Positions 37,436 to 64,000 of a stretch of 64,000 nt of DNA are shown here, piece by piece. Made by a program: the position numbers and the translations under genes. Below the pieces are notes generated by a model. It did not search any database. It was not told the origin of the DNA and worked only from the letters and a program-made list of their open reading frames with translations. This stretch comes from Candidatus Iainarchaeum sp. (lineage in GTDB: Archaea > Iainarchaeota > Iainarchaeia > Iainarchaeales > JAAZKV01), in contig JAPLVR010000006.1 in assembly GCA_026397015.1 (NCBI GenBank), positions 64,977 to 128,976 on the forward strand, read 5' to 3'. Within the stretch, counting starts at the first letter, position 1, and each line of letters starts with the position of its first letter.

Positions 37436-37717
37436 ATGGCGAAAATTATGGCCGATGAGAAAGAGGGCGGGAAGGTTGACGGCCTTTTTAATGGAATTAA
37501 AAAATATGTTTCTGAAAGAATAGGCACTTTTGTTGCATTTCTTTTTTTTCTTGTCGCACTCGGTGCCTTCATGGCGATGGTCGTGATGAAAAAGTGGCCC
37601 GAATATACATATTTGACCGTAATAATTCCGATAATCGCCGGAATCACTTCATACTATAACAGGGCGGTTGCGCTCGGATTGTTTTTACTCATAGCCTTTT
37701 TTGTATTCATTTTGTGA
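37436..37717 (+). CDS. small hypothetical membrane protein
   Basis: 93 aa with three predicted TM helices. It sits immediately upstream of the pilin-like operon. Confidence 0.45.
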   Translation: MAKIMADEKEGGKVDGLFNGIKKYVSERIGTFVAFLFFLVALGAFMAMVVMKKWPEYTYLTVIIPIIAGITSYYNRAVALGLFLLIAFFVFIL

Positions 37718-37799
37718 TTCTTTTCTGAAAAAATCACGAGATTTCAGCAATCAACGAACTTTTGGAAAATCTTTTAAAGCCCGGGAAAAAAATCTTCTT

Positions 37800-38318
37800 A
37801 TGCGCGGCATCTTCTGTTTCAGCATTACTCTGGTTATGCTCGCAATACTGCTCAACTTTTCGATTATTGAAAATGGGTTTTACTCAAAACTGGAAAAAGG
37901 CAAGAGCGCATTGATTGAAATGGAAAGCGGGAACAAAGAAAGAACCATAATTGAAAATAATGTCGACAAAATTGTGAGCACAGAAATAGCCGAGCAGATT
38001 GAAAATGGAAACCTCAATTCCGAATCAATAAAAGACGAGATAAATTCTTCCCTCGCCGGCTATCTCAAAGGCAGGGCGAATGCTTCAACAATCTTCTCAA
38101 AAACACAGGGCTCAACAATAACAAAAGAATTTCTAAATGGCAACAGCAACGCCTTCATACTTGAACTTGGTGGAAAAAAATATGGAGAATATTCGTTTGC
38201 TTCAAACGCCGAAAAAACAAACATCGTCTCGAAAACTTTCGGCAATAACGCAAAAGCCATTTTTACAATTCCCATTGACTACACAATCAGAAAACTAGCA
38301 GGGGGCGTAAAAAATTGA
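37800..38318 (+). CDS. pilin-like protein with class III-type signal peptide (A)
   Basis: I place the start at ATG 37800: MRG|IFCFSITLVMLAILLNFSII, then a ~150-aa soluble domain. Confidence 0.5.
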   Translation: MRGIFCFSITLVMLAILLNFSIIENGFYSKLEKGKSALIEMESGNKERTIIENNVDKIVSTEIAEQIENGNLNSESIKDEINSSLAGYLKGRANASTIFSKTQGSTITKEFLNGNSNAFILELGGKKYGEYSFASNAEKTNIVSKTFGNNAKAIFTIPIDYTIRKLAGGVKN

Positions 38319-38641
38319 GCACACTCGAAGCGTTAATTTCATTGATTGCTTTGCTTGCATTCATTGGAACAATGCTTGCAGTGCTTTCGCAGCAGAAAGA
38401 AAGCATCCTTCTTGCGGAAGCCTCGGTAAATGCAAAAGCCGACTCGTTTTTTTGCGCATTAACAATCGATTCAATTTATTCCAACAGCATTGATTCATAC
38501 TCGCAAAAAATTTTATGTTCTATTGGCCGGAAAAAAACAAGTGCAACTTCCAATAGAACTCTGAAAGAAACGGAGACTTTGGCGGAAGCCGAAAGCGGCT
38601 TTGAGACGGCGGTGAAATCGTTTGGGCATTATATCAAGTAA
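38315..38641 (+). CDS. pilin-like protein (B)
   Basis: The TTG start overlaps the upstream stop (TTGA), with AGGGGG 7 nt upstream. The N-terminus STLEALISLIALLAFIGTMLAVL resembles a pseudopilin helix. Confidence 0.4.
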   Translation: MSTLEALISLIALLAFIGTMLAVLSQQKESILLAEASVNAKADSFFCALTIDSIYSNSIDSYSQKILCSIGRKKTSATSNRTLKETETLAEAESGFETAVKSFGHYIK

Positions 38642-39086
38642 AGGGATGTTATTCTCAATCGATACAATAATTGCTTCAACGATTATTCTTCTTTCGCTTC
38701 TTGTTTTTTTCACGGCGCTTGAAAATCACACAAGCGAAATAAGCGGAACGGGCGAAAAAATCTTCCTTGAGGAAAAAACCATCTTCGTGGCGGATTCATT
38801 TGTGAAAAATTACGATCCTGAAAACGGGCTGCTTGGAGCCTGCGTCCCAGATTATGAAAAAAAGCGTGTGCGGTCAAACGAAATCTCATCGGCAAATTTT
38901 TTGAACATTAAGCTCGTTGAAATCGACAAATTTTTTGTAAAAAAAATTTCATTCAAAAACCGCACAACAGACACAACTGTTTTTTCAACCGAAAAAAAAG
39001 GAAAGGAGTGCATAGTGGCAAAGAGATTTGCGCTTATTGATTCCGAAAAAGCGGTTATTGAAATAATGGGGTGCCTGCTTGAGTAA
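38622..39086 (+). CDS. pilin-like protein with class III-type signal peptide (C)
   Basis: The TTG start gives MGIISSKG|MLFSIDTIIASTIILLSLLVFF. The SKG plus SI[DE] pattern is shared with the next gene. Confidence 0.5.
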   Translation: MGIISSKGMLFSIDTIIASTIILLSLLVFFTALENHTSEISGTGEKIFLEEKTIFVADSFVKNYDPENGLLGACVPDYEKKRVRSNEISSANFLNIKLVEIDKFFVKKISFKNRTTDTTVFSTEKKGKECIVAKRFALIDSEKAVIEIMGCLLE

Positions 39087-39423
39087 AGGGTTTATACTTT
39101 CAATCGAAGCAACAATTTCAATCCTTCTTCTTGGGCTTGCCCTCGCCACCATGTTTCAGCACCAAAGCTTTTCGTTCAAGGAAATAACCGTTTTGCAGCA
39201 GGAAAACGACCTGCTGAAAATATGGGGAATCAAATTCCCATCCGACTCTGAAATGATTTTCGATGCGAAAAAAATGTTCGGGGAAAATTTCGATATTTTT
39301 GTCGACGGGAAACAAATCTTTGCCTCAAAGGAACTGCACAAAAACTGCGTTTCAAGCGAGGCAACAATTTTGGACGATTCGCTCAAAGAAAAAAATTTTT
39401 TAATAAAGGTTTATTTTGAATAG
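39079..39423 (+). CDS. pilin-like protein with class III-type signal peptide (D)
   Basis: The TTG start overlaps the upstream gene. Sequence begins MSKG|FILSIEATISILLLGLALATMF. Confidence 0.55.
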   Translation: MSKGFILSIEATISILLLGLALATMFQHQSFSFKEITVLQQENDLLKIWGIKFPSDSEMIFDAKKMFGENFDIFVDGKQIFASKELHKNCVSSEATILDDSLKEKNFLIKVYFE

Positions 39424-39812
39424 GCGCGCAACCCCACTATGCCGTTGCTTTTTTCGATTTCAACGACAAATTTTTTTGTAAATTCCTGCCTTTGCAGGTT
39501 TTGGCCCTCACCAAGAATCGCCTCAAATGTTTGCGAAGGGCTTGCAAAAAAAACAATTTTTCCTTCCGATGAAATGGTTATTTTCCGCGCGGGAACAAAT
39601 TCGAAAACCTCCTTTGAACCGTCGCCAAGAAATTCGAAAAAACTCGCTTTTTCCTGGACAGTTTCCGCGATTTGCTTCGCCAGTGCGGAATCACCCGCGT
39701 CAAAAAATGCTTCCATGGAATAGGAAATCGCCGGCAGTATTATTGCGAACGCCGAGAAGAAGCCGAGCAACAAAAGCAGGAACTCCAGCGAACTCTGGCC
39801 CCTTTGCCTCAT
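39411..39812 (-). CDS. class III signal peptide (QxSxE) pilin-like protein (E)
   Basis: MRQRG|QSSLEFLLLLLGFFSAFAIILPAI. ATGA overlap with the upstream short pilin. The 3-prime end overlaps gene D by 13 nt. Confidence 0.65.
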   Translation of the reverse strand: MRQRGQSSLEFLLLLLGFFSAFAIILPAISYSMEAFFDAGDSALAKQIAETVQEKASFFEFLGDGSKEVFEFVPARKITISSEGKIVFFASPSQTFEAILGEGQNLQRQEFTKKFVVEIEKSNGIVGLRAYSK

Positions 39813-40000
39813 ATGTCATCAATCTTCTTGAACACTTCGTCGGCGGTTTTCTTCAACTTGTCTGAACCTTCTGCGGACGTTTCCTGCAGCTGATTCACCA
39901 GCAGAAGGACAACCGCGACAACCGCCGCCAGCACAATTATCAGCTCGACGGAAATCTGCGCTTCTTCCTCTTTAAAAATTTCATCAAAAAATTTCTCCAT
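39809..40000 (-). CDS. short Flp-like class III signal peptide pilin (F)
   Basis: 63 aa: MEKFFDEIFKEEEA|QISVELIIVLAAVVAVVLLLV. The leader is acidic. Confidence 0.65.
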   Translation of the reverse strand: MEKFFDEIFKEEEAQISVELIIVLAAVVAVVLLLVNQLQETSAEGSDKLKKTADEVFKKIDDI

Positions 40001-40122
40001 AAAGTAAGCCTTCTTTTTGTATTTAAAAAGATTCGGTTTTTTTCGTTGCGAGACGAAGATGAAAAAATTGTTCTGAAGGGGTTTGTTTACTTTTTTAAAT
40101 CTGTCGCAAATTGGTTCTTCCT

Positions 40123-40758
40123 ATGAAGACACAGGAAAAATTCGACCTAATTGTTTCATGGATAACGCTAAGCATTGCATTTGCAATTGTAATCGGGTTA
40201 TTTCCTTTCGGCCTGGAAGAAATTTTTATAACTCTCCCCATCGCATTTCTCGCGGTCGGCACGGGATTTGTTTTCCACGAACTTGCGCACAGGCAGGCGG
40301 CGCGAAAATTCGGCTTTCACTCTGAATACAGGGCGTGGTATGGAATGCTCGTGGTCGCATTGATTTTTTCACTAATAACAAGAATGGTTATTGCCGCGCC
40401 CGGCGCAACTTATTTTTTCGGAAAAAACGTTTCAAGGAGACAAAACGGGATAATCTCGGTTGCCGGCCCGATAACAAACATTTTCATAGGCTTCATTTTT
40501 TTGCTGCTCATGATTGCGCTTGTAAAAAGCAATATTTACACCTCTGAAATCAGCGTGGTACCGGCAATACTATACTATGTTTCACAAATAAATTTCTTCT
40601 TCGCATTTTTCAACATGCTTCCGATACTGATATTTGACGGGGCAAAAGTTTTTGTCTGGAATAAAAAAATCTGGTTTGCGGTATTTGGAATTGCCGCGCT
40701 GATGTCGTTCCTTCCGGACATTATTCTTGGCGTTTTCGGCATAGCGCTCGGCATGTGA
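40123..40758 (+). CDS. M50-family (site-2 protease-like) membrane metalloprotease
   Basis: HExxH in a TM segment (FVFHELAHRQAARKFG) and the second motif FNMLPILIFDGAKV. I prefer ATG 40123 over the TTG at 40111. Confidence 0.7.
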   Translation: MKTQEKFDLIVSWITLSIAFAIVIGLFPFGLEEIFITLPIAFLAVGTGFVFHELAHRQAARKFGFHSEYRAWYGMLVVALIFSLITRMVIAAPGATYFFGKNVSRRQNGIISVAGPITNIFIGFIFLLLMIALVKSNIYTSEISVVPAILYYVSQINFFFAFFNMLPILIFDGAKVFVWNKKIWFAVFGIAALMSFLPDIILGVFGIALGM

Positions 40759-56096: not shown

Positions 56097-57923
56097 ATGG
56101 CAGAAGACTATCTGACCGGGCTGATGAAACAGCTCAAAGACAAAACCGTTTCTGAAACAGGGGAAGAAAATGCGGATTCGGAGACACAGCCGCAGACTTT
56201 TTCAACCGAAAAATCCGCACAAACAACCGACGAAGAAATAATTCTTTCGGCAAAAAAAGAAGATGCGCCGATAATAAAGGCGCCGACTTATGAGGCGGAA
56301 ATCGAAGGGCCAGAAGCGGAAGGCGCGGGAAGAGAAGGAATCGGGATCGATAGAACAGGCGCAGAAACCGGGGCGCTATCTCCTCTGAAAAAAGAAATAA
56401 TCGAAGGGGATGAAAAAGCGGCGGAAGTGATTGAAAAAACAACCGCGGAAAAAGAAGTCGAGCAGAGCCAAAAAATAGAACTGAAATCTTACGGCAAAGT
56501 AAAAATATTTAAGATTCCGGAAAAGCCGCTGCCCTACTATTTCATTCCTACGCCGAGACCGACATCGGCTGAAAGAAAAATAATTAACACGATAAAAGAG
56601 GCAACCACAAGACTAATCTCTATCGCACCCTACAAAGTCAGGGACCCGGAACAAAGGCGCATCGTGTACAAACAAAAAATAATTGAAATAATCAAAAACA
56701 GCCCGTCGCTAAGAGTGCCGGAAAGCAGAATAAATTTTTACGCGGAAGCGGTTGTAAGGGAAATGGTCGGTTACGGAATAATTGACGACCTGATAAAAGA
56801 TGACGGACTTGAAGAAATAATGATAATAGGCCCGAAGAAACCAATCTACGTTTTCCACAGAGAATTCGAAATGATGAGCACCAACATAGAATTTTTTTCC
56901 GAACAGGAAATAGAAGACCTGATAAATAAAATTGCAAGAGAAGTCGGAAGAAGGGTCGATGTTTCGGCGCCGCTACTTGACGCCAGGCTTCCCGACGGAA
57001 GCAGGGTAAATGCAACTATTCCTCCGGCATCCATAAGCGGCGGAACACTAACAATAAGAAAATTCAGGGCAGACCCTTACTCTATAATCGACCTCGTAAA
57101 ATTGGGAACACTTACAAGCGAAGCCGCCGCATTCCTCTGGCTTTGCGCCGAGGGAATGAGCGTGAAACCTGCAAACATCCTAATTTCCGGAGGCACGGGG
57201 TCTGGAAAAACAACGCTGTTGAATGTGCTTACCGCATTTGTTCCGGAAAGGGAAAGAGTAATAACAATCGAAGACACAGCCGAATTAAGTTTGCCGCTCA
57301 AGCACTGGATAAGGATGGAGGGGCGGCCGCCCGGATTGGAGGGAACAGGCGAGTTGAAGATGGATATACTCACAAAGAACTCGCTGAGAATGAGACCGGA
57401 CAGAATCATCGTCGGAGAAATAAGGCACGAAGAAGCATTCACTCTTTTCACCGCACTCAACACGGGCCATGACGGATGCATGGGAACAGTTCACGCAAAC
57501 AGCCCGCAGGAAACAATAATCAGAGTAACGAATCCGCCCATGAATGTTCCGCAAATAATGCTAAGCGGACTAGACTTGATAATAATAGAACACAGGATGC
57601 ACGACAGAAAAAAAGGAACAATAAGAAGAATAACCGAAATAGCCGAAATTTATAACGCGCTCGAAGGCAACCCGAAAACGGAAACAATCTACAAATGGGA
57701 CCCGATTAAAGACACACTTGAAAAAACACTTGTAAACAGCAGGTATCTTGCCGACCTGAGGGCTTTCAGCGGCCTCAATAAGGAACAGATAAATGCGGAG
57801 CTCGAAATAAGAAAAACATTTTTGGAAGAATTGCTCAAACAAAACGTGCGAAGCATCTCCGCGGTTTCATCCGCAACAAAAAAGTTTTTAACAAAAAAAG
57901 CCGAAGCGGGCGATACACGATGA
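56097..57923 (+). CDS. type II/IV secretion-family ATPase (TadA/FlaI/EpdL-like)
   Basis: Walker A SGGTGSGKTTLL, Asp box ITIEDTAEL, Walker B PDRIIVGEIR, His box GHDGCMGTVHAN. The N-terminal ~130 aa is acidic and low-complexity. Confidence 0.85.
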   Translation: MAEDYLTGLMKQLKDKTVSETGEENADSETQPQTFSTEKSAQTTDEEIILSAKKEDAPIIKAPTYEAEIEGPEAEGAGREGIGIDRTGAETGALSPLKKEIIEGDEKAAEVIEKTTAEKEVEQSQKIELKSYGKVKIFKIPEKPLPYYFIPTPRPTSAERKIINTIKEATTRLISIAPYKVRDPEQRRIVYKQKIIEIIKNSPSLRVPESRINFYAEAVVREMVGYGIIDDLIKDDGLEEIMIIGPKKPIYVFHREFEMMSTNIEFFSEQEIEDLINKIAREVGRRVDVSAPLLDARLPDGSRVNATIPPASISGGTLTIRKFRADPYSIIDLVKLGTLTSEAAAFLWLCAEGMSVKPANILISGGTGSGKTTLLNVLTAFVPERERVITIEDTAELSLPLKHWIRMEGRPPGLEGTGELKMDILTKNSLRMRPDRIIVGEIRHEEAFTLFTALNTGHDGCMGTVHANSPQETIIRVTNPPMNVPQIMLSGLDLIIIEHRMHDRKKGTIRRITEIAEIYNALEGNPKTETIYKWDPIKDTLEKTLVNSRYLADLRAFSGLNKEQINAELEIRKTFLEELLKQNVRSISAVSSATKKFLTKKAEAGDTR

Positions 57924-59026
57924 GCGAACAGGGCGCAAGTTCATATGCAATAGACAAGGATGAGGTTGAAAGAATAGTCGAGGGAATGAAGAAGAAATAC
58001 CGCGACGACGGAATGCACTTCGAGGAGGTTTCCGACAATCTCAAAGAATTGCGGGGAATTATTGCGGAAGAATCATATTCAAAAATAGACATCGAAAGCG
58101 AATCGGACGTCGAAAACTTTGATTCAAAAACTATGCAATTCTTCGGAAACTTTTATCTGAAAACAAAAAATTTTCTAAAACCAATACAGAATTCGCTGAA
58201 AAAGCTTCCCTCAAACAAGGAGCTGAGCTATTACCTCTATTCGGCAGACATGCACTATTCGTCAAACCAGTATGTCGCGATATCAAGCGCTGTGGGGCTG
58301 CTCATCGGGCTTATAACATTCGCAATAATAATTCTTTTGAGCGCAATTCTTCTGAATCCGTTGATTTTGATAATCGCCGTTCCAATGGCAGTTGTAACAG
58401 GATTTATTGCAATGATGATTACGCTCTTTATCCCAAAACAAAATGCGATTGCGCGGGGGGAAGCATGCTCGACAGAACTTCCGTTCGCATTGAGACACAT
58501 GGCAACGGAACTCAAAGCCGGAATAGGGTTGTACAAAACAATACAGGCGATTGCGGTTGCCGATTACGGGGTTTTGAGCGAAGAATTTGCAAGAACTATA
58601 AACGAAATCGAAGAGGGAACGGATACAAGCCTCGCATTAAGGCACCTTGCGCTCAGAACACAAAGCAGGCCGCTCAAAATGGCGATGATGCACATAATAA
58701 GGGCGATGCGAATCGGGGGAAACCTTTCTGGAATAATTAATGAAATTGCAAACGATGTTTCCGACGATTTAAAAAACAGAATAAATTCATTCTCGCAAAA
58801 AATGAATCTCTTTTCAGTAATATTTATTTTCCTCGGGATAGTAATTCCAGTCGGAATAACCATACTTGGGGTAATAAGAAACTCGCCGATAACAAGCGGC
58901 AGCCAGGAAATGTTCAAGGCGATTCCGCTGACGCCGCCCGTAATGTTGATATTTTATTTCGTGGTGATGCCAATGCTTTTCATCATGATGAATTTAATGA
59001 TTTATTCAATACAACCAAAAATGTGA
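57920..59026 (+). CDS. single-domain T2SS-F-like platform protein (TadB/EpdJ-like)
   Basis: ATGA overlap with the ATPase gene. T2SSF block ELPFALRHMATELKAGIGLYKTIQAIA, flanked by TM helices. Confidence 0.75.
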   Translation: MSEQGASSYAIDKDEVERIVEGMKKKYRDDGMHFEEVSDNLKELRGIIAEESYSKIDIESESDVENFDSKTMQFFGNFYLKTKNFLKPIQNSLKKLPSNKELSYYLYSADMHYSSNQYVAISSAVGLLIGLITFAIIILLSAILLNPLILIIAVPMAVVTGFIAMMITLFIPKQNAIARGEACSTELPFALRHMATELKAGIGLYKTIQAIAVADYGVLSEEFARTINEIEEGTDTSLALRHLALRTQSRPLKMAMMHIIRAMRIGGNLSGIINEIANDVSDDLKNRINSFSQKMNLFSVIFIFLGIVIPVGITILGVIRNSPITSGSQEMFKAIPLTPPVMLIFYFVVMPMLFIMMNLMIYSIQPKM

Positions 59027-59041
59027 AAAAATGGTGAACAG

Positions 59042-59950
59042 ATGAGCATAGTTGAAGATTACATAGAATGGGTTGAATTCAGCAGAATTCCATTCAAGGC
59101 GCCAGTCTGGGTCACAATGTCGCTGGGAATATCCGCGGCAGTAGGCGCCGCTTCCTTCATAGGAAGCTTCTTCATTCTCAGCGAGATAACGCTGCTTCCA
59201 ATTGCGTTCACACTTGCAACTCTCGTACTGCTTCTCGGCTACCCTTACATGAAAACCGAATCAATAATTGATTCCATCGAAAAAAACTTTAGTGACGCAC
59301 TCAAACAAATGGCTGACACTCTAAAAGCGGGCGACACCTACGAAAGTGCCCTAAGGGAAGTTGCCAACGCAGAATATGGAAGGCTTTCGGAAGAAATGGA
59401 TATCGCGTTACGAAGGCTCGAGGAAGGCGAAAACTTGGAAACATCGCTCAACGGATTCGCAGAAAGGGTTAACTCAAAAGTCGTAAGAAGAACAACAACC
59501 ATAATACTCGATTCGATAAGAACGGGAGCCAGTCTGGCAGACATTCTCGACCAAATTTCTGACGACGTTAGGTCATTCCAAAGAATCAAAGAGGAAAGAA
59601 AAGCGAATACTACAATGCAGTTTGCATTCATGGCATTGGCAGGCGGATTAATAGCGCCCGCAATTTTCGGCGAAGTAAACAGCGTAATGACAATATTTTC
59701 AAAAGTCTCGCTCAAAATGCTTGAAGGGGCGCAGCTGGAAACAAGCAAAAAGGTAACAGAATTTATCATGATGCTAATTCAATCCTACATAATAATTGAA
59801 GTTATCGCATCGGGCGCAATGATGTCAATAATCAGAGAAGGAAAACTCAACAAAAGCGTTATATATATCCCAATACTATTACTGTTGGCATTCATCGCAT
59901 ATTACTCCGCAAGAATGATAACACAGGGGGCGGTTGCCGGAGCGATATAA
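59042..59950 (+). CDS. single-domain T2SS-F-like platform protein (TadC/EpdK-like)
   Basis: T2SSF block FSDALKQMADTLKAGDTYESALREVA, with N- and C-terminal TM helices. Confidence 0.75.
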   Translation: MSIVEDYIEWVEFSRIPFKAPVWVTMSLGISAAVGAASFIGSFFILSEITLLPIAFTLATLVLLLGYPYMKTESIIDSIEKNFSDALKQMADTLKAGDTYESALREVANAEYGRLSEEMDIALRRLEEGENLETSLNGFAERVNSKVVRRTTTIILDSIRTGASLADILDQISDDVRSFQRIKEERKANTTMQFAFMALAGGLIAPAIFGEVNSVMTIFSKVSLKMLEGAQLETSKKVTEFIMMLIQSYIIIEVIASGAMMSIIREGKLNKSVIYIPILLLLAFIAYYSARMITQGAVAGAI

Positions 59951-60003
59951 ATAATTGAAAAATTGGAAATAGGGCGATTAAAAAAATATTGTCGGTGAAA
60001 AGA

Positions 60004-60147
60004 ATGGAAGAAAAAGCACAGGTAAATTTGGAGTACTTGCTGATAATCGCTGGCGCTGTCGTAATAGCGACAGCAGTAGGGCTATTCATAAAACAAAGCG
60101 CAAGCTCGGTAACACGCTCGGCGCAGGAAAAGAGCGCACAGGGTTGA
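60004..60147 (+). CDS. 47-aa Flp-like pilin (below track cutoff)
   Basis: My own translation: MEEKA|QVNLEYLLIIAGAVVIATAVGLFIKQSASSVTRSAQEKSAQG. GGTGA lies 6 nt upstream of the ATG. Confidence 0.6.
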   Translation: MEEKAQVNLEYLLIIAGAVVIATAVGLFIKQSASSVTRSAQEKSAQG

Positions 60148-60241
60148 AAAACGCTTATTCCAGCTTCAAAAAGCAAAACATTTAAAAATTAGGAAACCCT
60201 TATACAATGGTGGTTTTTACGGTTCAAAGGAGGTTATAAAA

Positions 60242-60550
60242 ATGGAGGGAAGAGGACAAGGCTCAATCGAGTATTTGCTTATCATCGGCGCGGCGATAGT
60301 TATTGCTGTAATAGTAATTGCAGTGGTAGTGAGTATCGGCGGAGGCAATAAGGAAAGCACGAATCAGACAACTCTTGAAGCACAAGACATGAAGGAATGC
60401 CTCATAGACTGCTGCTACAAGACACAGAGCATAAAATACAACCTAGACAAAAATGTTAGTCTGCCCGACTGCAACAGCATACCAAATGTATGCCAAGGCC
60501 TAGACATGAATCAGGCAGCTTGCCTTAAGTGTAATAAAGTAAAATGCTAA
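60242..60550 (+). CDS. class III signal peptide pilin with 8-Cys C-terminal domain
   Basis: AAGGAGGT SD. MEGRG|QGSIEYLLIIGAAIVIAVIVIAVVV. The C-terminal ~60 aa contains 8 Cys. Confidence 0.75.
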   Translation: MEGRGQGSIEYLLIIGAAIVIAVIVIAVVVSIGGGNKESTNQTTLEAQDMKECLIDCCYKTQSIKYNLDKNVSLPDCNSIPNVCQGLDMNQAACLKCNKVKC

Positions 60551-60561
60551 TTTTTTGGTAG

Positions 60562-60581
60562 AAAAGGCCTTCGGGCCTTTT
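60562..60581 (+). terminator. perfect hairpin with TTCG loop followed by T-rich tract
   Basis: AAAAGGCC-TTCG-GGCCTTTT, 12 nt after the stop of the pilin gene. Confidence 0.55.
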
Positions 60582-60631
60582 CGAATATTTTTTCATAATT
60601 CCATTTTTTTACTTTGGGCGCTGGCGCAACC

Positions 60632-60639
60632 TTTAAATA
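60632..60639 (+). promoter_or_regulatory. candidate TATA box about 25 nt upstream of ATG 60661
   Basis: TTTAAATA with no SD before the ATG, consistent with a leaderless transcript. Confidence 0.35.
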
Positions 60640-60660
60640 GCAAAATCACGTATTATTAGC

Positions 60661-60993
60661 ATGGAAAATAAAAGGATTATTGAAGCACAGGGGGCAGTCG
60701 AATATTTGCTTCTGCTGGCGGCGGGAGTCGTTGTTGTGGCAGTAGTAATAACTTTCTTGATAAATGCAACCACTGCGGGGCAGGGTGCCGGTTGCCAACA
60801 GCTTAACACCTACCTGTGTGATACCCTGCATTCGAAAACAGATGAATGCGCTTGTTACATAGGGCCTGGGGGAAAGTGGCCTGATGACACTAATGTAGAT
60901 GAATACATGAACGATAATCACAAAGTGAGCAACTTTTGCTGTATAACATACACTAATTGTGCAGCACTTACGTCGAAATGGAACTGTACCTGA
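60661..60993 (+). CDS. class III signal peptide pilin with 8-Cys C-terminal domain
   Basis: MENKRIIEA|QGAVEYLLLLAAGVVVVAVVITFL. The C-terminal ~70 aa contains 8 Cys, including a CC pair. Confidence 0.75.
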   Translation: MENKRIIEAQGAVEYLLLLAAGVVVVAVVITFLINATTAGQGAGCQQLNTYLCDTLHSKTDECACYIGPGGKWPDDTNVDEYMNDNHKVSNFCCITYTNCAALTSKWNCT

Positions 60994-61020
60994 ATAGTTG
61001 AGTCGAAAAGAGCTGAATAA

Positions 61021-61203
61021 ATGGGAATGATAGGAGAAGAGCGAGCGCAGGTCTCATTCGAGTACCTGCTAACAGCGGTTTTCGGGATAGTTCTGGCGAT
61101 AAGCGCCGCGATAATAATTGAAACACTGAGGGAAATAGCTCTGGGCGCTCAGGCGGATATCCTGTCAACAAGAGAAGAAGTAATTTCAAATATAATGAGA
61201 TAA
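61021..61203 (+). CDS. 60-aa Flp-like pilin
   Basis: MGMIGEERA|QVSFEYLLTAVFGIVLAISAAIIIETL, then a short polar tail. Confidence 0.7.
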   Translation: MGMIGEERAQVSFEYLLTAVFGIVLAISAAIIIETLREIALGAQADILSTREEVISNIMR

Positions 61204-61258
61204 AATAGAAACAAGGAGAAAGTCGAAAACGGCAAGGCTTCTCAAGACAAGAAATTTA

Positions 61259-62512
61259 TTATTGGCGCCCGTCTCTTAACAGCAAACTTGGAATAATTCC
61301 GTTCAATTCCCCGATTTTTTCAACCAGATTGGAATACCCTTTTGCCTGCCTTGCAACCCTGCTTCTCAACAAATCGATTTTGCCGGAAATTTCCCTGTGC
61401 AATTTTGACTCAACAGAAGGATTTCTTTTGGCTTTACTTAAAAGTTTTTCCAGTTCGATGCTTGAATGATTAATCATTCTTTGCCATTCCATCAAAAGGC
61501 GCAAATTCCTCAGAACGGAAAATTGAAGGGCCCTTGCCCGTGTGTACGCATGCCCGCTTCCCTTGGAAAGATAAATCTTTTCAAGATTGTCCAAATTTGT
61601 TATGACATCCTGGAGGTCTCTTGAATAATACAAAAATTTTTTAGGATTAAAATTTTTAGAAGTGAAATCGCGGTTGGCTTCAAGAGCCCTCTGAAAAATC
61701 CCTAATTTTTTTATCTGCCTTGTGTTTTCTGCAACAAACCACCAGACCGGGGGCACCCCTCTTGGAACTTCGCGCTGGAAAGCCGCTATCTTTTTGCGAA
61801 GAAGCCTGTAATCACCAACGGACATCTTGTCCAAATCTTTTATCTCCGCCTTTAACAAATCATACGCGCTCTTGCCCCCTCTCTTTGGTGGAACAAGTGA
61901 AATCGAAAAAGAAAAAAGTTTTGGCGCCTCTGGCCCGCCAAGCGGAAGAAAAAATGCGTGCTTTCCATCCTCCACCGGAATTGAAAATAATCCCCCCTTT
62001 CCGCCTTCCCTTAAGCCCGGCTTGAAATTTTGCTCCACAAACCTGCGGAGCTTCCTTGCATTCCCGAAATACAGGGCGGTTCTTGTTACAAAACAAAAAT
62101 GCGAAGCCTGTTGATTTTCCCACGTAAATTTTCCACCGATTTTTTTTATTATGACCGGAAAATTTTGCGTGTAATGCCCGAAAGGGCTGGATTTCACTTC
62201 CAGCGTTTTTGCATTCCTGTCAAAAGATTTTATTACCCTGTCAACCGCCGCCTTGTCTTTTATGCCCCCTGTGTTCTCAATCAGCGCCAATTCCTTGACG
62301 GTTGACAAGAATTCTTTCGACGGCTTTTTGTCTGTTAAAAATACATCGATTCCACTGGACCATTTTTTTGTTCCGTGGGCAAATTTTCCTCCGAGACCTA
62401 TAACTTTCCTCTCGGCCCACCTGCCAAACACTTTGTAAAAGGGAACACGCACCATCACAAAATTAGCGTCGCGGAAGTTTAAATGTGTTTTGGTTTTTGG
62501 AAAACCACCCAA
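61259..62512 (-). CDS. hypothetical basic protein (orphan, 417 aa)
   Basis: Long uninterrupted ORF. The N-terminal half is mixed alpha/beta and the C-terminal ~120 aa is helical. No catalytic or binding motif I recognise. Confidence 0.55.
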   Translation of the reverse strand: MGGFPKTKTHLNFRDANFVMVRVPFYKVFGRWAERKVIGLGGKFAHGTKKWSSGIDVFLTDKKPSKEFLSTVKELALIENTGGIKDKAAVDRVIKSFDRNAKTLEVKSSPFGHYTQNFPVIIKKIGGKFTWENQQASHFCFVTRTALYFGNARKLRRFVEQNFKPGLREGGKGGLFSIPVEDGKHAFFLPLGGPEAPKLFSFSISLVPPKRGGKSAYDLLKAEIKDLDKMSVGDYRLLRKKIAAFQREVPRGVPPVWWFVAENTRQIKKLGIFQRALEANRDFTSKNFNPKKFLYYSRDLQDVITNLDNLEKIYLSKGSGHAYTRARALQFSVLRNLRLLMEWQRMINHSSIELEKLLSKAKRNPSVESKLHREISGKIDLLRSRVARQAKGYSNLVEKIGELNGIIPSLLLRDGRQ

Positions 62513-62566
62513 TTGAGAAGTTGCCGAGCGGAATCAAAATTTGAAAATAATATCCGGGTTTGAAAG

Positions 62567-63700
62567 TTAGCCTTCCCATGCAGCGTTTTCTATTTCCTGA
62601 ACCTTTCTCTTGGCTTTTTTTGAGCGCATTAACTCTCCCTGGTATATTTTCTTGAGTTCTTTGTCGGAAAGCATCAATTTGTCCCAAGGGACTGCAAATC
62701 CTCTTTTTTCGAACATAGAAATCTTGTGCTTCAATTTTGTATTGCCCATCATCAGATATATTTTTCTTTTCAAAGGGTCCTGACCGCGCGAAGCCAAAAG
62801 TTCAACGTTTGCAATAATCTCCCCAGTTGGAACAATCAGCAATCCTGGATTTGTTTGATAAGCTTGCTTTAGCCCGTACAAACTATTGAGGATTGCCCTT
62901 CCTCTCTTTGACCTGAAACTTTTTTCGTGCAAATATTCCCTGAATTTTGGCGTCTTCGCAATGCTCGCAAGTCTGTCCATTCTCCATGCGCGCTTTGAAT
63001 ACAAATCTATAGTGCCCATTCCAGCCTTGTAAAGAATCCTTGCGCGGTCCTGCGCGCCCCTTATTCCGAGCTCCTTAACCAAAAGATTGTGGAGCTCGCG
63101 CAACTGTTTTTCGGGCATTGTCCAAAGATCAACATAATTCAGGCTTTTTGAAAAATCGAATCCCAGGCGCTTGAGAAGTTTCGATCTTGCAGCCCTTTGC
63201 TTCGGGGTCATTTTTAGCATTGCTTTTATTTTTGCCGGAGAAGGGCTTATTCCCTTATAATAATCCGTCATGCTTCCCTTTGCTTCCCTTCTCAAAGAGA
63301 CTGTTCTAACTTTCGTAAGCCCTCTTTCGGTAACTCCAAGCTCCCCGAAAATCATCCTCCTGAGCTTCTCATTGAAAACCGGCCTTGTCGCCCTCAAATC
63401 TGCATGGAATGCATCGTAAATTCTCCTCTCTGGCTGAGCAAGCCCTTGGTAACGATAATCCGAAATTTTTCGACTGACCAGCTGCCCGATTTTCTCGCGC
63501 CCAAGTTTGAGAGCGATTTTATAGTTGTAATAATCGCCGAAACTTTTGAACTTTGCAGGATAGGCTCTTCCGGTTGCCTTGTTGCGTGCGCTTATTCTCC
63601 TCCGCATCCCCTTTAAAACGCGCCTCTCATACGCCGCCTTTTCTTTCAGATTCATCTTGTTAATTTTTTTTGCGGGTTTTCTCGCGGGCATAAAAATCAC
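62567..63700 (-). CDS. hypothetical basic helical-repeat-like protein (orphan, 377 aa)
   Basis: K/R-rich. The motif [LF]-x-x-[LR]-G-[hydrophobic or polar] recurs six times: ALKLGREK, FGELGVTE, LKRLGFDF, VKELGIRG, LASRGQDP, FEKRGFAV. Confidence 0.55.
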   Translation of the reverse strand: MIFMPARKPAKKINKMNLKEKAAYERRVLKGMRRRISARNKATGRAYPAKFKSFGDYYNYKIALKLGREKIGQLVSRKISDYRYQGLAQPERRIYDAFHADLRATRPVFNEKLRRMIFGELGVTERGLTKVRTVSLRREAKGSMTDYYKGISPSPAKIKAMLKMTPKQRAARSKLLKRLGFDFSKSLNYVDLWTMPEKQLRELHNLLVKELGIRGAQDRARILYKAGMGTIDLYSKRAWRMDRLASIAKTPKFREYLHEKSFRSKRGRAILNSLYGLKQAYQTNPGLLIVPTGEIIANVELLASRGQDPLKRKIYLMMGNTKLKHKISMFEKRGFAVPWDKLMLSDKELKKIYQGELMRSKKAKRKVQEIENAAWEG

Positions 63701-63874
63701 GTAACATGAAACAGGCTGCCATGCAACCCTAATAATTAATTTGCGTTCCCTAAGTATTTAATACTTGCTATTCAACCAACCGTGAAACGGCCAAAAGTGG
63801 AATAGGGCGGTTTTCCCGAACCCGAAAGATTTTTTAACTTCAAGGGGCAGGTCTTGTATAAAGAGGGTGGTAAC

Positions 63875-64000
63875 GTGCCGATAATTAGGTTTCGCGAGCC
63901 GCGAATGAAGAAAGAAGTAAAAATGGGCTTTGCCCAAAGGCTAAGATGCGGAACAAAAGCAATGATGACCAACCTCCACGTGAGAATGACCAAAAAAACC
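63875..64000 (+). CDS. 5-prime part of an ORF running off the window edge
   Basis: A GTG at 63875 follows AGAGGGTGG, with an in-frame ATG at 63905. Translation: (M)PIIRFREPRMKKEVKMGFAQRLRCGTKAMMTNLHVRMTKKT... Product not recognised. Confidence 0.3.
   Translation, partial: MPIIRFREPRMKKEVKMGFAQRLRCGTKAMMTNLHVRMTKKT

Follow-up and report, generated by a model that had tools for sequence, protein, structure and literature searches.

Gene content of the locus

We analyzed a 64,000-nucleotide stretch of DNA from Candidatus Iainarchaeum sp. (contig JAPLVR010000006.1, positions 64,977 to 128,976; the whole stretch is called the window here), and in it seven genes between positions 56097 and 61203 that a preliminary description, made from the sequence alone, had read as a self-contained type IV filament locus. 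All seven open reading frames (ORFs) of that description were found on the plus strand in the ORF list (Table 1). They code for an assembly ATPase, two platform proteins and four short pilins, here named pil47, pil102, pil110 and pil60, and they are very probably the first seven genes of a type IV pilus operon of Iainarchaeia/Diapherotrites, of the archaeal kind termed 'clade 1', 'System 1' or 'Epd-like'. A chance pattern can be ruled out, because the gene order and the N-terminal motif of the pilins recur in more than 12 related genomes. The pilus cluster is real but ordinary, and belongs to a class of system that has already been described, including in methanogens, Thermococcales and DPANN archaea.

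An independent Logan assembly contig (L001) carries an identical ATPase and runs past the end of the window (window coordinate = L001 coordinate + 46096). The same gene arrangement was observed in two independent assemblies. The NCBI entry of an identical ATPase, encoded on a 220 kb contig, reads 'MAG: CpaF family protein [Candidatus Diapherotrites archaeon]'. The locus has archaeal housekeeping genes as neighbours, coding for Nre, threonyl-tRNA synthetase, the RFC small subunit, an AsnC-family regulator and a type IA topoisomerase. No RNA genes were detected by tRNA and Rfam scans of the window.

Table 1. Position of the pilus genes and of other features in the window and on its continuation
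Feature	Position	Strand	Length	Remark
Assembly ATPase	56097-57923	+	608 aa	
Platform protein 1	57920-59026	+	368 aa	One T2SSF domain
Platform protein 2	59042-59950	+	302 aa	One T2SSF domain
Pilin pil47	60004-60147	+	47 aa	From ATG; 52 aa from the upstream TTG at 59989
Pilin pil102	60242-60550	+	102 aa	
Pilin pil110	60661-60993	+	110 aa	
Pilin pil60	61021-61203	+	60 aa	
A24 peptidase	65759-66889 (window-equivalent)		376 aa	Outside the window, on contig continuation L001
Post-peptidase pilin pil153	66886-67347 (window-equivalent)		153 aa	Outside the window
Post-peptidase pilin pil114	67368-67712 (window-equivalent)		114 aa	Outside the window
Insertion, part in the window	61204-64000			Two minus-strand genes; not part of the pilus machine
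Insertion gene 1	61259-62455	-	398 aa	
Insertion gene 2	62567-63691	-	374 aa	
Insertion, further genes				PIG-L deacetylase, then a 287-aa protein; beyond the window
Candidate class III signal-peptide protein	39809-40000	-	63 aa	Away from the operon
Candidate class III signal-peptide protein	39411-39812	-	133 aa	Away from the operon

The assembly ATPase and its relatives

The product of the first gene matched the Pfam family T2SSE with 154 bits (E 5.7e-45), and contains, as had been described, the four motifs of a secretion ATPase: Walker A (GGTGSGKT, at residue 365), the Asp box (384), Walker B (433) and the His box (456). From the N-terminus, the protein consists of a conserved helix, a disordered acidic linker of ~100 residues, an N-terminal domain and the RecA-like ATPase domain. 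The preliminary description had reported an unusual acidic N-terminal extension of ~130 amino acids. The extension is indeed acidic (27 D+E vs 12 K+R in residues 1-112), and residues 15-111 are predicted to be disordered (AlphaFold, predicted local distance difference test, pLDDT, <50). The non-conserved part, however, covers ~110 residues and follows a conserved helix: in a 36-sequence alignment M1, D4, Y5, L6 and K14 are near-invariant, and strong conservation is regained from about residue 113. Nor is the extension an oddity, because NTD0 of CpaF (residues 1-79), which is also predicted to be disordered and varies among homologues, is its direct counterpart; the loss of NTD0 reduces retraction in Caulobacter (PMC11300603).

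To place the ATPase, its sequence was compared with characterized proteins. Among solved structures the best sequence matches were Caulobacter CpaF (259 bits, residues 198-525), A. fulgidus GspE2 (235 bits) and S. acidocaldarius FlaI (213 bits), and against plasmids bacterial CpaF was best (40-46% identity), followed by a haloarchaeal ATPase (38%) and VirB11/TrbB (~30-34%). Thousands of homologues with 60-80% identity are present in DPANN metagenome bins. Core identities, computed over a 314-column core alignment, were 77-94% with Iainarchaeia, 56-63% with Methanobacteriales, Altiarchaeota and Hydrothermarchaeota (56-58% for the three Methanobacteriales alone), 42-46% with three bacterial CpaF, 36-38% with FlaI, GspE2 and the haloarchaeal ATPase (38% for FlaI), and 33% with VirB11 and TrbB. 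In a neighbour-joining tree with bootstraps, which did not include M. maripaludis EpdL, the Iainarchaeia formed a clade (100%) and were joined by Methanobacteriales, Altiarchaeota and Hydrothermarchaeota (66%), and the window ATPase fell outside a clade of FlaI, GspE2 and the haloarchaeal ATPase that had 100% support. Judged from these sequence comparisons, the window ATPase is not FlaI, and it groups with the ATPases of Methanobacteriales. The latter are clade 1 according to the literature, and the placement of the window ATPase in clade 1 rests on its being closest to this order, since clade 1 is the only type of ATPase present in Methanobacteria (PMC4858521).

Database labels point to two other identities, an archaellum locus or a mis-binned bacterial Tad locus. 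Many homologues carry the JGI label 'flagellar protein FlaI', the NCBI label is 'CpaF family protein', the best NCBIfam match is FlaI, and a homologue with 82% identity is assigned to a bacterial metagenome-assembled genome (MAG), Izemoplasmatales. Either identity is nevertheless extremely improbable. The FlaI model scored 299.5 bits against a cut-off of 550, and the TadA-family model (TIGR03819) 240.8 bits against a cut-off of 373. The ATPase does share its superfamily and fold with ArlI/FlaI (Foldseek E 1e-28), but lies outside the FlaI clade; neither archaellins nor ArlH/C/D/E/F/G/X, the stator and accessory genes included, were found at the locus, and its platform is split whereas ArlJ is one fused protein. 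As for a bacterial Tad locus, the neighbour genes are archaeal (RFC small subunit, Nre, AsnC-family regulator and type IA topoisomerase), and there is no secretin (RcpA/CpaC), TadZ or TadD in the operon, the window or the relatives, the host being an archaeon without an outer membrane, and no match to the Flp_Fap family.

The Izemoplasmatales entry itself (P0002, 'Candidatus Izemoplasmatales bacterium') is probably a mis-binned archaeal contig, because its nearest relatives and its gene context are archaeal. Two further features were observed among the ATPase homologues. Several Iainarchaeial orthologues carry inteins (Pfam Intein_splicing and LAGLIDADG_3; L014 9824-12796, L016 9743-12793, L025 9755-14323 and L015 2351-4633) that break the protein at about query residue 461-463, within the His box (TGHDG/C). 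One ORF of 1522 amino acids may hold two inteins, and the window ATPase has none. The ATPases of Hydrothermarchaeota and related MAGs (P0003-P0022, L019 and L021) are ~1000 amino acids long, with a large extra N-terminal region (Pfam PF23989) and 45-50% identity over the C-terminal 75-80% of the window protein, and two split platform genes follow them.

The split platform

The stop codon of the ATPase gene overlaps the start of the platform 1 gene as ATGA at 57920-57923, and each of the two platform proteins has exactly one Pfam T2SSF (PF00482) domain (69.3 bits at residues 190-316 of platform 1, and 61.8 bits in platform 2); the preliminary description was correct on both points. Platform 1 has in addition a cytoplasmic N-terminal extension of ~110 residues. 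It aligns to positions 31-253 of the 484 of UpsF, i.e., to the N-terminal half of a fused platform protein, whereas platform 2 aligns to the C-terminal half, namely positions 190-461 of the 465 of ArlJ/FlaJ (88 bits) and 268-437 of UpsF. The two proteins matched each other with ~45-46 bits. Orthologues of platform 1 were found in Altiarchaeota, Hydrothermarchaeota and Methanobacteriales (87-141 bits; 109-141 bits in the first two), and orthologues of platform 2 in Altiarchaeota and Hydrothermarchaeota (111-116 bits). Since each half has its own orthologues in Altiarchaeota and Hydrothermarchaeota, the split is older than the divergence of these phyla. The order of the genes, N-terminal half and then C-terminal half, is what a simple fission would be expected to leave. 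Mapping of the two halves onto bacterial TadB and TadC was also attempted, and was abandoned at scores of 17-23 bits, too weak for an assignment.

The pilins

All four short proteins of the window carry the motif [GA]↓Q-x3-E-Y-L-L (the arrow denotes the predicted cleavage site), as had been claimed. To learn whether the motif is conserved, all ORFs across the loci that are homologous to the four pilins or to the two pilins encoded behind the peptidase gene (pil153 and pil114; see below) were collected (n=95). The cleavage motif [KR]-[GA]↓Q-x-x-x-E, followed by ~20 hydrophobic residues, was present in 94 of them, the one exception having Asp for Glu. The leaders are extremely short, typically MEEKA. 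The properties of the six families are summarized in Table 2.

Table 2. The six pilin families of the Iainarchaeial loci
Family	Mature length	Cys	Remark
pil47	38-46 aa	0	Polar S/T/A-rich tail
pil102	51-267 aa	0-14	Highly variable
pil110	~100 aa	4-10	
pil60	51-53 aa	0	Near-invariant QV[SA]FEYLLT start
pil153	~145 aa	4 (5 in one ORF)	Weak sub-threshold TadE match
pil114	99-116 aa (626 aa in the fused L011 ORF)	0-2 (7 in the fused ORF)	

The mature forms of pil47 and pil60 are helix-only proteins without Cys, in which a hydrophobic helix is followed by a short polar tail and the globular C-terminal domain is absent. The precursor of pil47 starts MEEKA↓Q and gives a mature protein of 42 amino acids; all 21 orthologous ORFs have [KR]A↓Q-x3-E, and in many relatives the gene overlaps the platform 2 stop codon. 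It is a candidate for the major subunit. The precursor of pil60 (EERA↓Q) gives a mature protein of 51 amino acids, and it is the best-conserved pilin of the set, with 14 of 14 orthologues beginning as given in Table 2. The other two pilins of the window each have a C-terminal domain with eight Cys: pil102 (MEGRG↓Q, mature 97 amino acids), the variable member, whose orthologues occur in one or two copies per locus, and pil110 (IEA↓Q, mature 101 amino acids), for which 12 orthologues with the motif were found. The two pilins encoded behind the peptidase gene begin MKKG↓QASIEF and MRQTG↓QVSFEA.

The preliminary description had likened the short pilins to the Flp pilins of bacterial Tad systems. 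This holds for size and design, in that mature pil47 closely resembles the Flp pilin annotated in a bacterial Tad locus, but not for the protein family. Class_IIIsignal (PF04021, gathering score 23.7) was matched above its threshold by pil47 (47 or 52 amino acids; 25.1 bits) and by pil102 (31.3 bits), and below it by pil110 (18.3 bits) and pil60 (10 bits), whereas none of the four had Flp_Fap among its listed Pfam families (E up to 1). The Glu5-Tyr6 pair belongs to the archaeal class III consensus, rather than being specific to bacterial Flp pilins.

AT-rich, TATA-like elements lie ahead of the ATPase gene and of several pilin genes, and a GGAGG is found upstream of pil102. Directly 3' of pil102 we observed a G+C-rich hairpin (GGCCTTCGGGCC) with T-runs (window 60551-60625; hairpin ~60556-60620), and then a TATA-like TTTAAATA ahead of the next pilin gene, which suggests internal termination and re-initiation within the string of pilin genes. 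On the basis of the TATA-like elements and of the hairpin with its T-runs, the pilin genes may therefore be transcribed at other levels than the motor genes.

A search for homologues of pil110 gave, beyond the protein itself, only one paralogue, P0122 (NTZ73_03790). It is encoded on the same 220 kb contig, ~80 genes off and outside the window, has 94 amino acids and 47% identity, and shares with pil110 the eight-Cys pattern and a MENG↓QGAIEYLLLL start; stand-alone pilin genes of this sort have been described for clade 1 systems. A scan of the whole window for the motif found two more proteins, with EEEA↓QISVE (63 amino acids) and RQRG↓QSSLEF (133 amino acids), whose genes overlap by 4 nt and whose Class_IIIsignal scores are below the threshold (15.9 and 14.5 bits, respectively). 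They belong to a second cluster, at window 37436-40000, which codes for small proteins whose N-termini contain hydrophobic segments. In this cluster, four convergent plus-strand ORFs (37701-38318, 38315-38641, 38622-39086 and 39079-39423) have KG-type leaders or a bare hydrophobic helix, and a gene for an M50 peptidase (40111-40758) adjoins it. The proteins of this cluster may be additional pilins, or pilin-like proteins, that the same machine handles.

The peptidase and the insertion that displaces it

The preliminary description was right that the window holds no prepilin peptidase gene. We found an A24 peptidase gene on the contig continuation L001, ~1.8 kb past the window end. Its product of 376 amino acids matched Peptidase_A24 (53.7 bits) and Arc_PepC (35 bits), and both catalytic Asp residues are present, D21 and the GGD at 81-83, as aligned to FlaK (3S0X). 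A crude hydropathy scan gave 7 clear hydrophobic segments. By its architecture the protein appears to be a long-form, EppA-like A24 peptidase, with scores far below the cut-offs of both the EppA and the FlaK models. The stop codon of the gene overlaps the start of the first downstream pilin gene (pil153) as ATGA.

The peptidase is missing from the window because an insertion displaces it, together with two pilin genes, by ~4.5 kb. The inserted block spans 61204 to window-equivalent ~65716 (L001 15108-19620), and was found between pil60 and the peptidase gene in this genome only, being absent from at least 12 relatives. The distance between pil60 and the peptidase gene is 4555 bp here and 74 bp in the closest relative (L002), and alignment of the junctions places the insertion point within ~25 bp after the pil60 stop codon. 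The insertion has left intact the conserved AAATAAATGGTTTTTTAAACACAAAAAAC element that immediately precedes the peptidase start. Besides a PIG-L deacetylase, the insertion codes for three very basic proteins of 398, 374 and 287 amino acids (73-88 K+R each), none of which had a match in Pfam, NCBIfam or PHROG. The 398-amino acid protein had no relatives in 5.8 billion clusters, and the 374-amino acid protein none in 1.84 billion representatives. No terminal or flanking repeats of the insertion were detected beyond short matches at the level of chance.

An insertion with orphan proteins and a PIG-L deacetylase, present in this genome only, is what might be expected if the locus were a decaying or inactive remnant in which the peptidase and two pilins have been uncoupled from the rest. 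This is very unlikely: the ten genes are all intact and full length, with 82-94% similarity to the closest relative, the element ahead of the peptidase start is retained, and the arrangement is identical in both assemblies. Because the ORFs are all intact and the conserved element is in place, the split pilus system is probably functional, as far as its sequence tells.

The operon in related genomes

We then scanned one genome per GTDB species, and recovered 30 loci. At least 16 of these are from MAGs of Iainarchaeia or Forterrea (64-83% identity), whereas Altiarchaeota, Hydrothermarchaeota and three Methanobacteriales account for others (46-52%). A contiguous, same-strand operon was observed in 12 or more Iainarchaeial genomes, with the gene order ATPase, platform 1, platform 2, pil47, pil102 (1-2 copies), pil110, pil60, A24 peptidase, pil153 and pil114, and with the genes for Nre and threonyl-tRNA synthetase usually upstream. 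The ATPase of the closest relative (L002) is 82% identical overall and 94% in the core. Hence the seven genes are not the self-contained unit of the preliminary description, since the conserved operon also includes the peptidase and two further pilins. Neither pilins with the G/A↓Q-x3-E motif nor a peptidase were found within 10 kb of the examined ATPase loci of Methanobacteriales, Altiarchaeota and Hydrothermarchaeota.

In several relatives (L002 17731-21201, L005 16753-19098, L009 16752-19585 and others) the same-strand string continues past the tenth gene, with genes for a membrane-anchored protein of ~108 amino acids, a TctA-family membrane protein (128.6 bits), a JAB-domain protein and two proteins that start KG↓QISxD or KG↓QIFSxD. 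The pilus-related cluster of these relatives may thus be ~15 genes long.

Comparison with known systems

Clade 1, as defined by Makarova, Koonin & Albers in 2016, has an ATPase, two TadC-like genes, a long EppA peptidase with nine transmembrane segments and major pilins of ~70 amino acids (PMC4858521). The clade of Epd-like and Tad systems of Denise, Abby & Rocha (2019) is marked by fission of the platform into two one-domain genes, short pilins and a secondary ATPase of the TadZ/FlaH type (PMC6668835). 'System 1' is the name used in the 2026 preprint of Sivabalasarma & Albers. The prototype of this kind of pilus, under any of the three names, is the EppA-dependent pilus of Methanococcus maripaludis. 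The Iainarchaeial system resembles these in having one secretion ATPase, most similar to those of Methanobacteriales, next to two adjacent platform genes with one T2SSF domain each; in pilins with the DUF361/Class_IIIsignal motif (QxSxExxxL) and Gln at +1, two of them very short (mature 42 and 51 amino acids) and lacking a globular domain; and in an A24 peptidase, apparently of the long form, in the gene neighbourhood. It differs in that ATPase, platform, pilins, peptidase and further pilins all lie in one operon, split here by the insertion, and in that neither large adhesin or S-layer-like genes nor genes for a transglutaminase-like peptidase or a MinD/FlaH-like ATPase lie near the Iainarchaeial locus.

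The likeness to bacterial Tad systems is also considerable. The order ATPase, F-domain gene, F-domain gene, pilin-like genes is the same in an annotated Roseinatronobacter locus, CpaF is the best match to the ATPase among both solved structures and plasmids and is closer to it in identity than FlaI is, the mature pilins have ~40-50 amino acids with Glu5-Tyr6, and the disordered N-terminal extension of the ATPase resembles NTD0 (PMC11300603). In contrast to bacterial Tad, the pilins match Class_IIIsignal while Flp_Fap is not listed, the platform proteins matched TadB/TadC with only 17-23 bits, TIGR03819 stayed below its cut-off, and the C-terminal helical extension of the ATPase is of the archaeal type, aligning to FlaI and GspE2 and not to CpaF.

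Several results weigh against the assignment to an Epd-like, clade 1 system. In the tree all archaeal ATPases were joined against CpaF and VirB11/TrbB (96%), whereas clade 1-like ATPases and CpaF were joined with only 4%, so that neither the published sister relation of Epd and Tad nor a specific sister relation of the window ATPase to bacterial Tad was recovered by this simple distance method. The modelled fold of the ATPase (AlphaFold from the 36-sequence alignment, mean pLDDT 64.8, with the core 391-485 poorly predicted), compared with the PDB by Foldseek, matched FlaI, GspE2 and CpaF about equally (E 1e-28 to 1e-24, TM 0.6-0.68), and hence does not tell the subfamilies apart. The peptidase aligned to the NCBI EppA model end to end (residues 6-363 to positions 5-331 of 334), but with only 36 bits against a cut-off of 450, and to the FlaK model with 53 bits against a cut-off of 330, over the N-terminal 150 residues only. 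The insertion may have altered the stoichiometry or the regulation of the peptidase. Finally, no secondary ATPase of the TadZ/FleN/FlaH type was found in the 64 kb window, in which no ORF has the deviant Walker A motif KGGxGK[ST], and none was seen in the operons of the relatives; this absence is weak evidence, because the secondary ATPase gene of clade 1 (MinD/FleN, arCOG00589, or FlaH-like) is usually stand-alone according to the literature. Against these points stand the split platform, the pilins with Gln at +1 and Glu at +5, the ATPase identities and the adjacent A24 peptidase of EppA length, which agree with the earlier view that the genes encode an Epd/Tad-lineage type IV filament machine and not an archaellum. 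Of the two findings that the preliminary description had named as refuting it, neither was obtained: the ATPase does not group with FlaI, and relatives conserve the motif of the pilins.

Probable assembly and role of the pilus

By analogy with the characterized Epd, Tad and other type IV systems, the pilus is likely to be assembled as follows. The pilin precursors would be inserted into the membrane, and the neighbouring, apparently long-form A24 aspartyl peptidase would cut off the leader of 4-9 residues after [KR][GA], so that the mature pilins begin with Gln and have Glu as their fifth residue. The ATPase, as a hexamer that docks on the platform of two half-size T2SSF proteins, would then pull the mature pilins from the membrane and add them to the base of the filament. 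The helix-only pil47 or pil60, or both, probably form the shaft, and the four larger pilins, the two Cys-rich ones of the window and the two encoded behind the peptidase gene, are probably low-abundance initiation, tip or adhesive subunits. Disulfides in the Cys-rich pilins would fit an extracellular location.

The pilus most likely serves in adhesion, to a surface or a host cell, as judged from the analogy with Epd/Tad systems and from the DPANN lifestyle. The same kind of machine could have a mainly non-adhesive role, as a secretion or presentation pseudopilus (bindosome-like), as a pilus for DNA uptake or exchange, or as a retractile pilus for motility or for predation on a host. Archaeal type IV filaments are functionally diverse, and binding proteins that bear SPIII are widespread (10.64898/2026.04.22.720090); moreover, the disordered N-terminus of the ATPase is like the CpaF segment whose loss lowers retraction in Caulobacter (PMC11300603). 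However, neither the operon studied here nor those of the relatives contain substrate-binding proteins, DNA-translocation genes or a second ATPase, and the only characterized relative, the Epd pilus of M. maripaludis, serves in surface attachment (PMC6668835). We consider a mainly non-adhesive role quite unlikely.

A further reading goes beyond that of an Epd-like adhesive pilus. It holds that the Iainarchaeial system, with motor, split platform, peptidase and two different helix-only pilins encoded in one operon, may be the most compact and most Tad-like archaeal pilus known, that pil47 and pil60, both conserved throughout the class, might co-polymerise as a two-component Flp-type shaft, and that the insertion could be an unrecognised mobile or hypervariable cassette that targets the pilus locus. 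This reading is unlikely; if true, the system would provide a living model for the archaeal ancestor that was the source of bacterial Tad pili.

Significance

Type IV pili are routinely noted in DPANN genome papers (e.g., PMC8561730, which includes the MAG of locus L012), and since such systems have already been described in DPANN archaea, current understanding is unchanged. What is added here is the ten-gene architecture of the operon across Iainarchaeia, the site of the 'missing' peptidase, and the insertion of orphan genes that splits the operon in this genome. A syntenic, peptidase-containing Epd-like operon with six conserved pilin families provides a clean target set for structural work and metaproteomics, and the compact Iainarchaeial operon offers a further archaeal system for comparison with bacterial Tad pili, for which an archaeal origin has been proposed. 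In the genome-reduced DPANN archaea few surface organelles can be recognised; pili are one of them, and are the obvious candidates for contact with a host or a surface.

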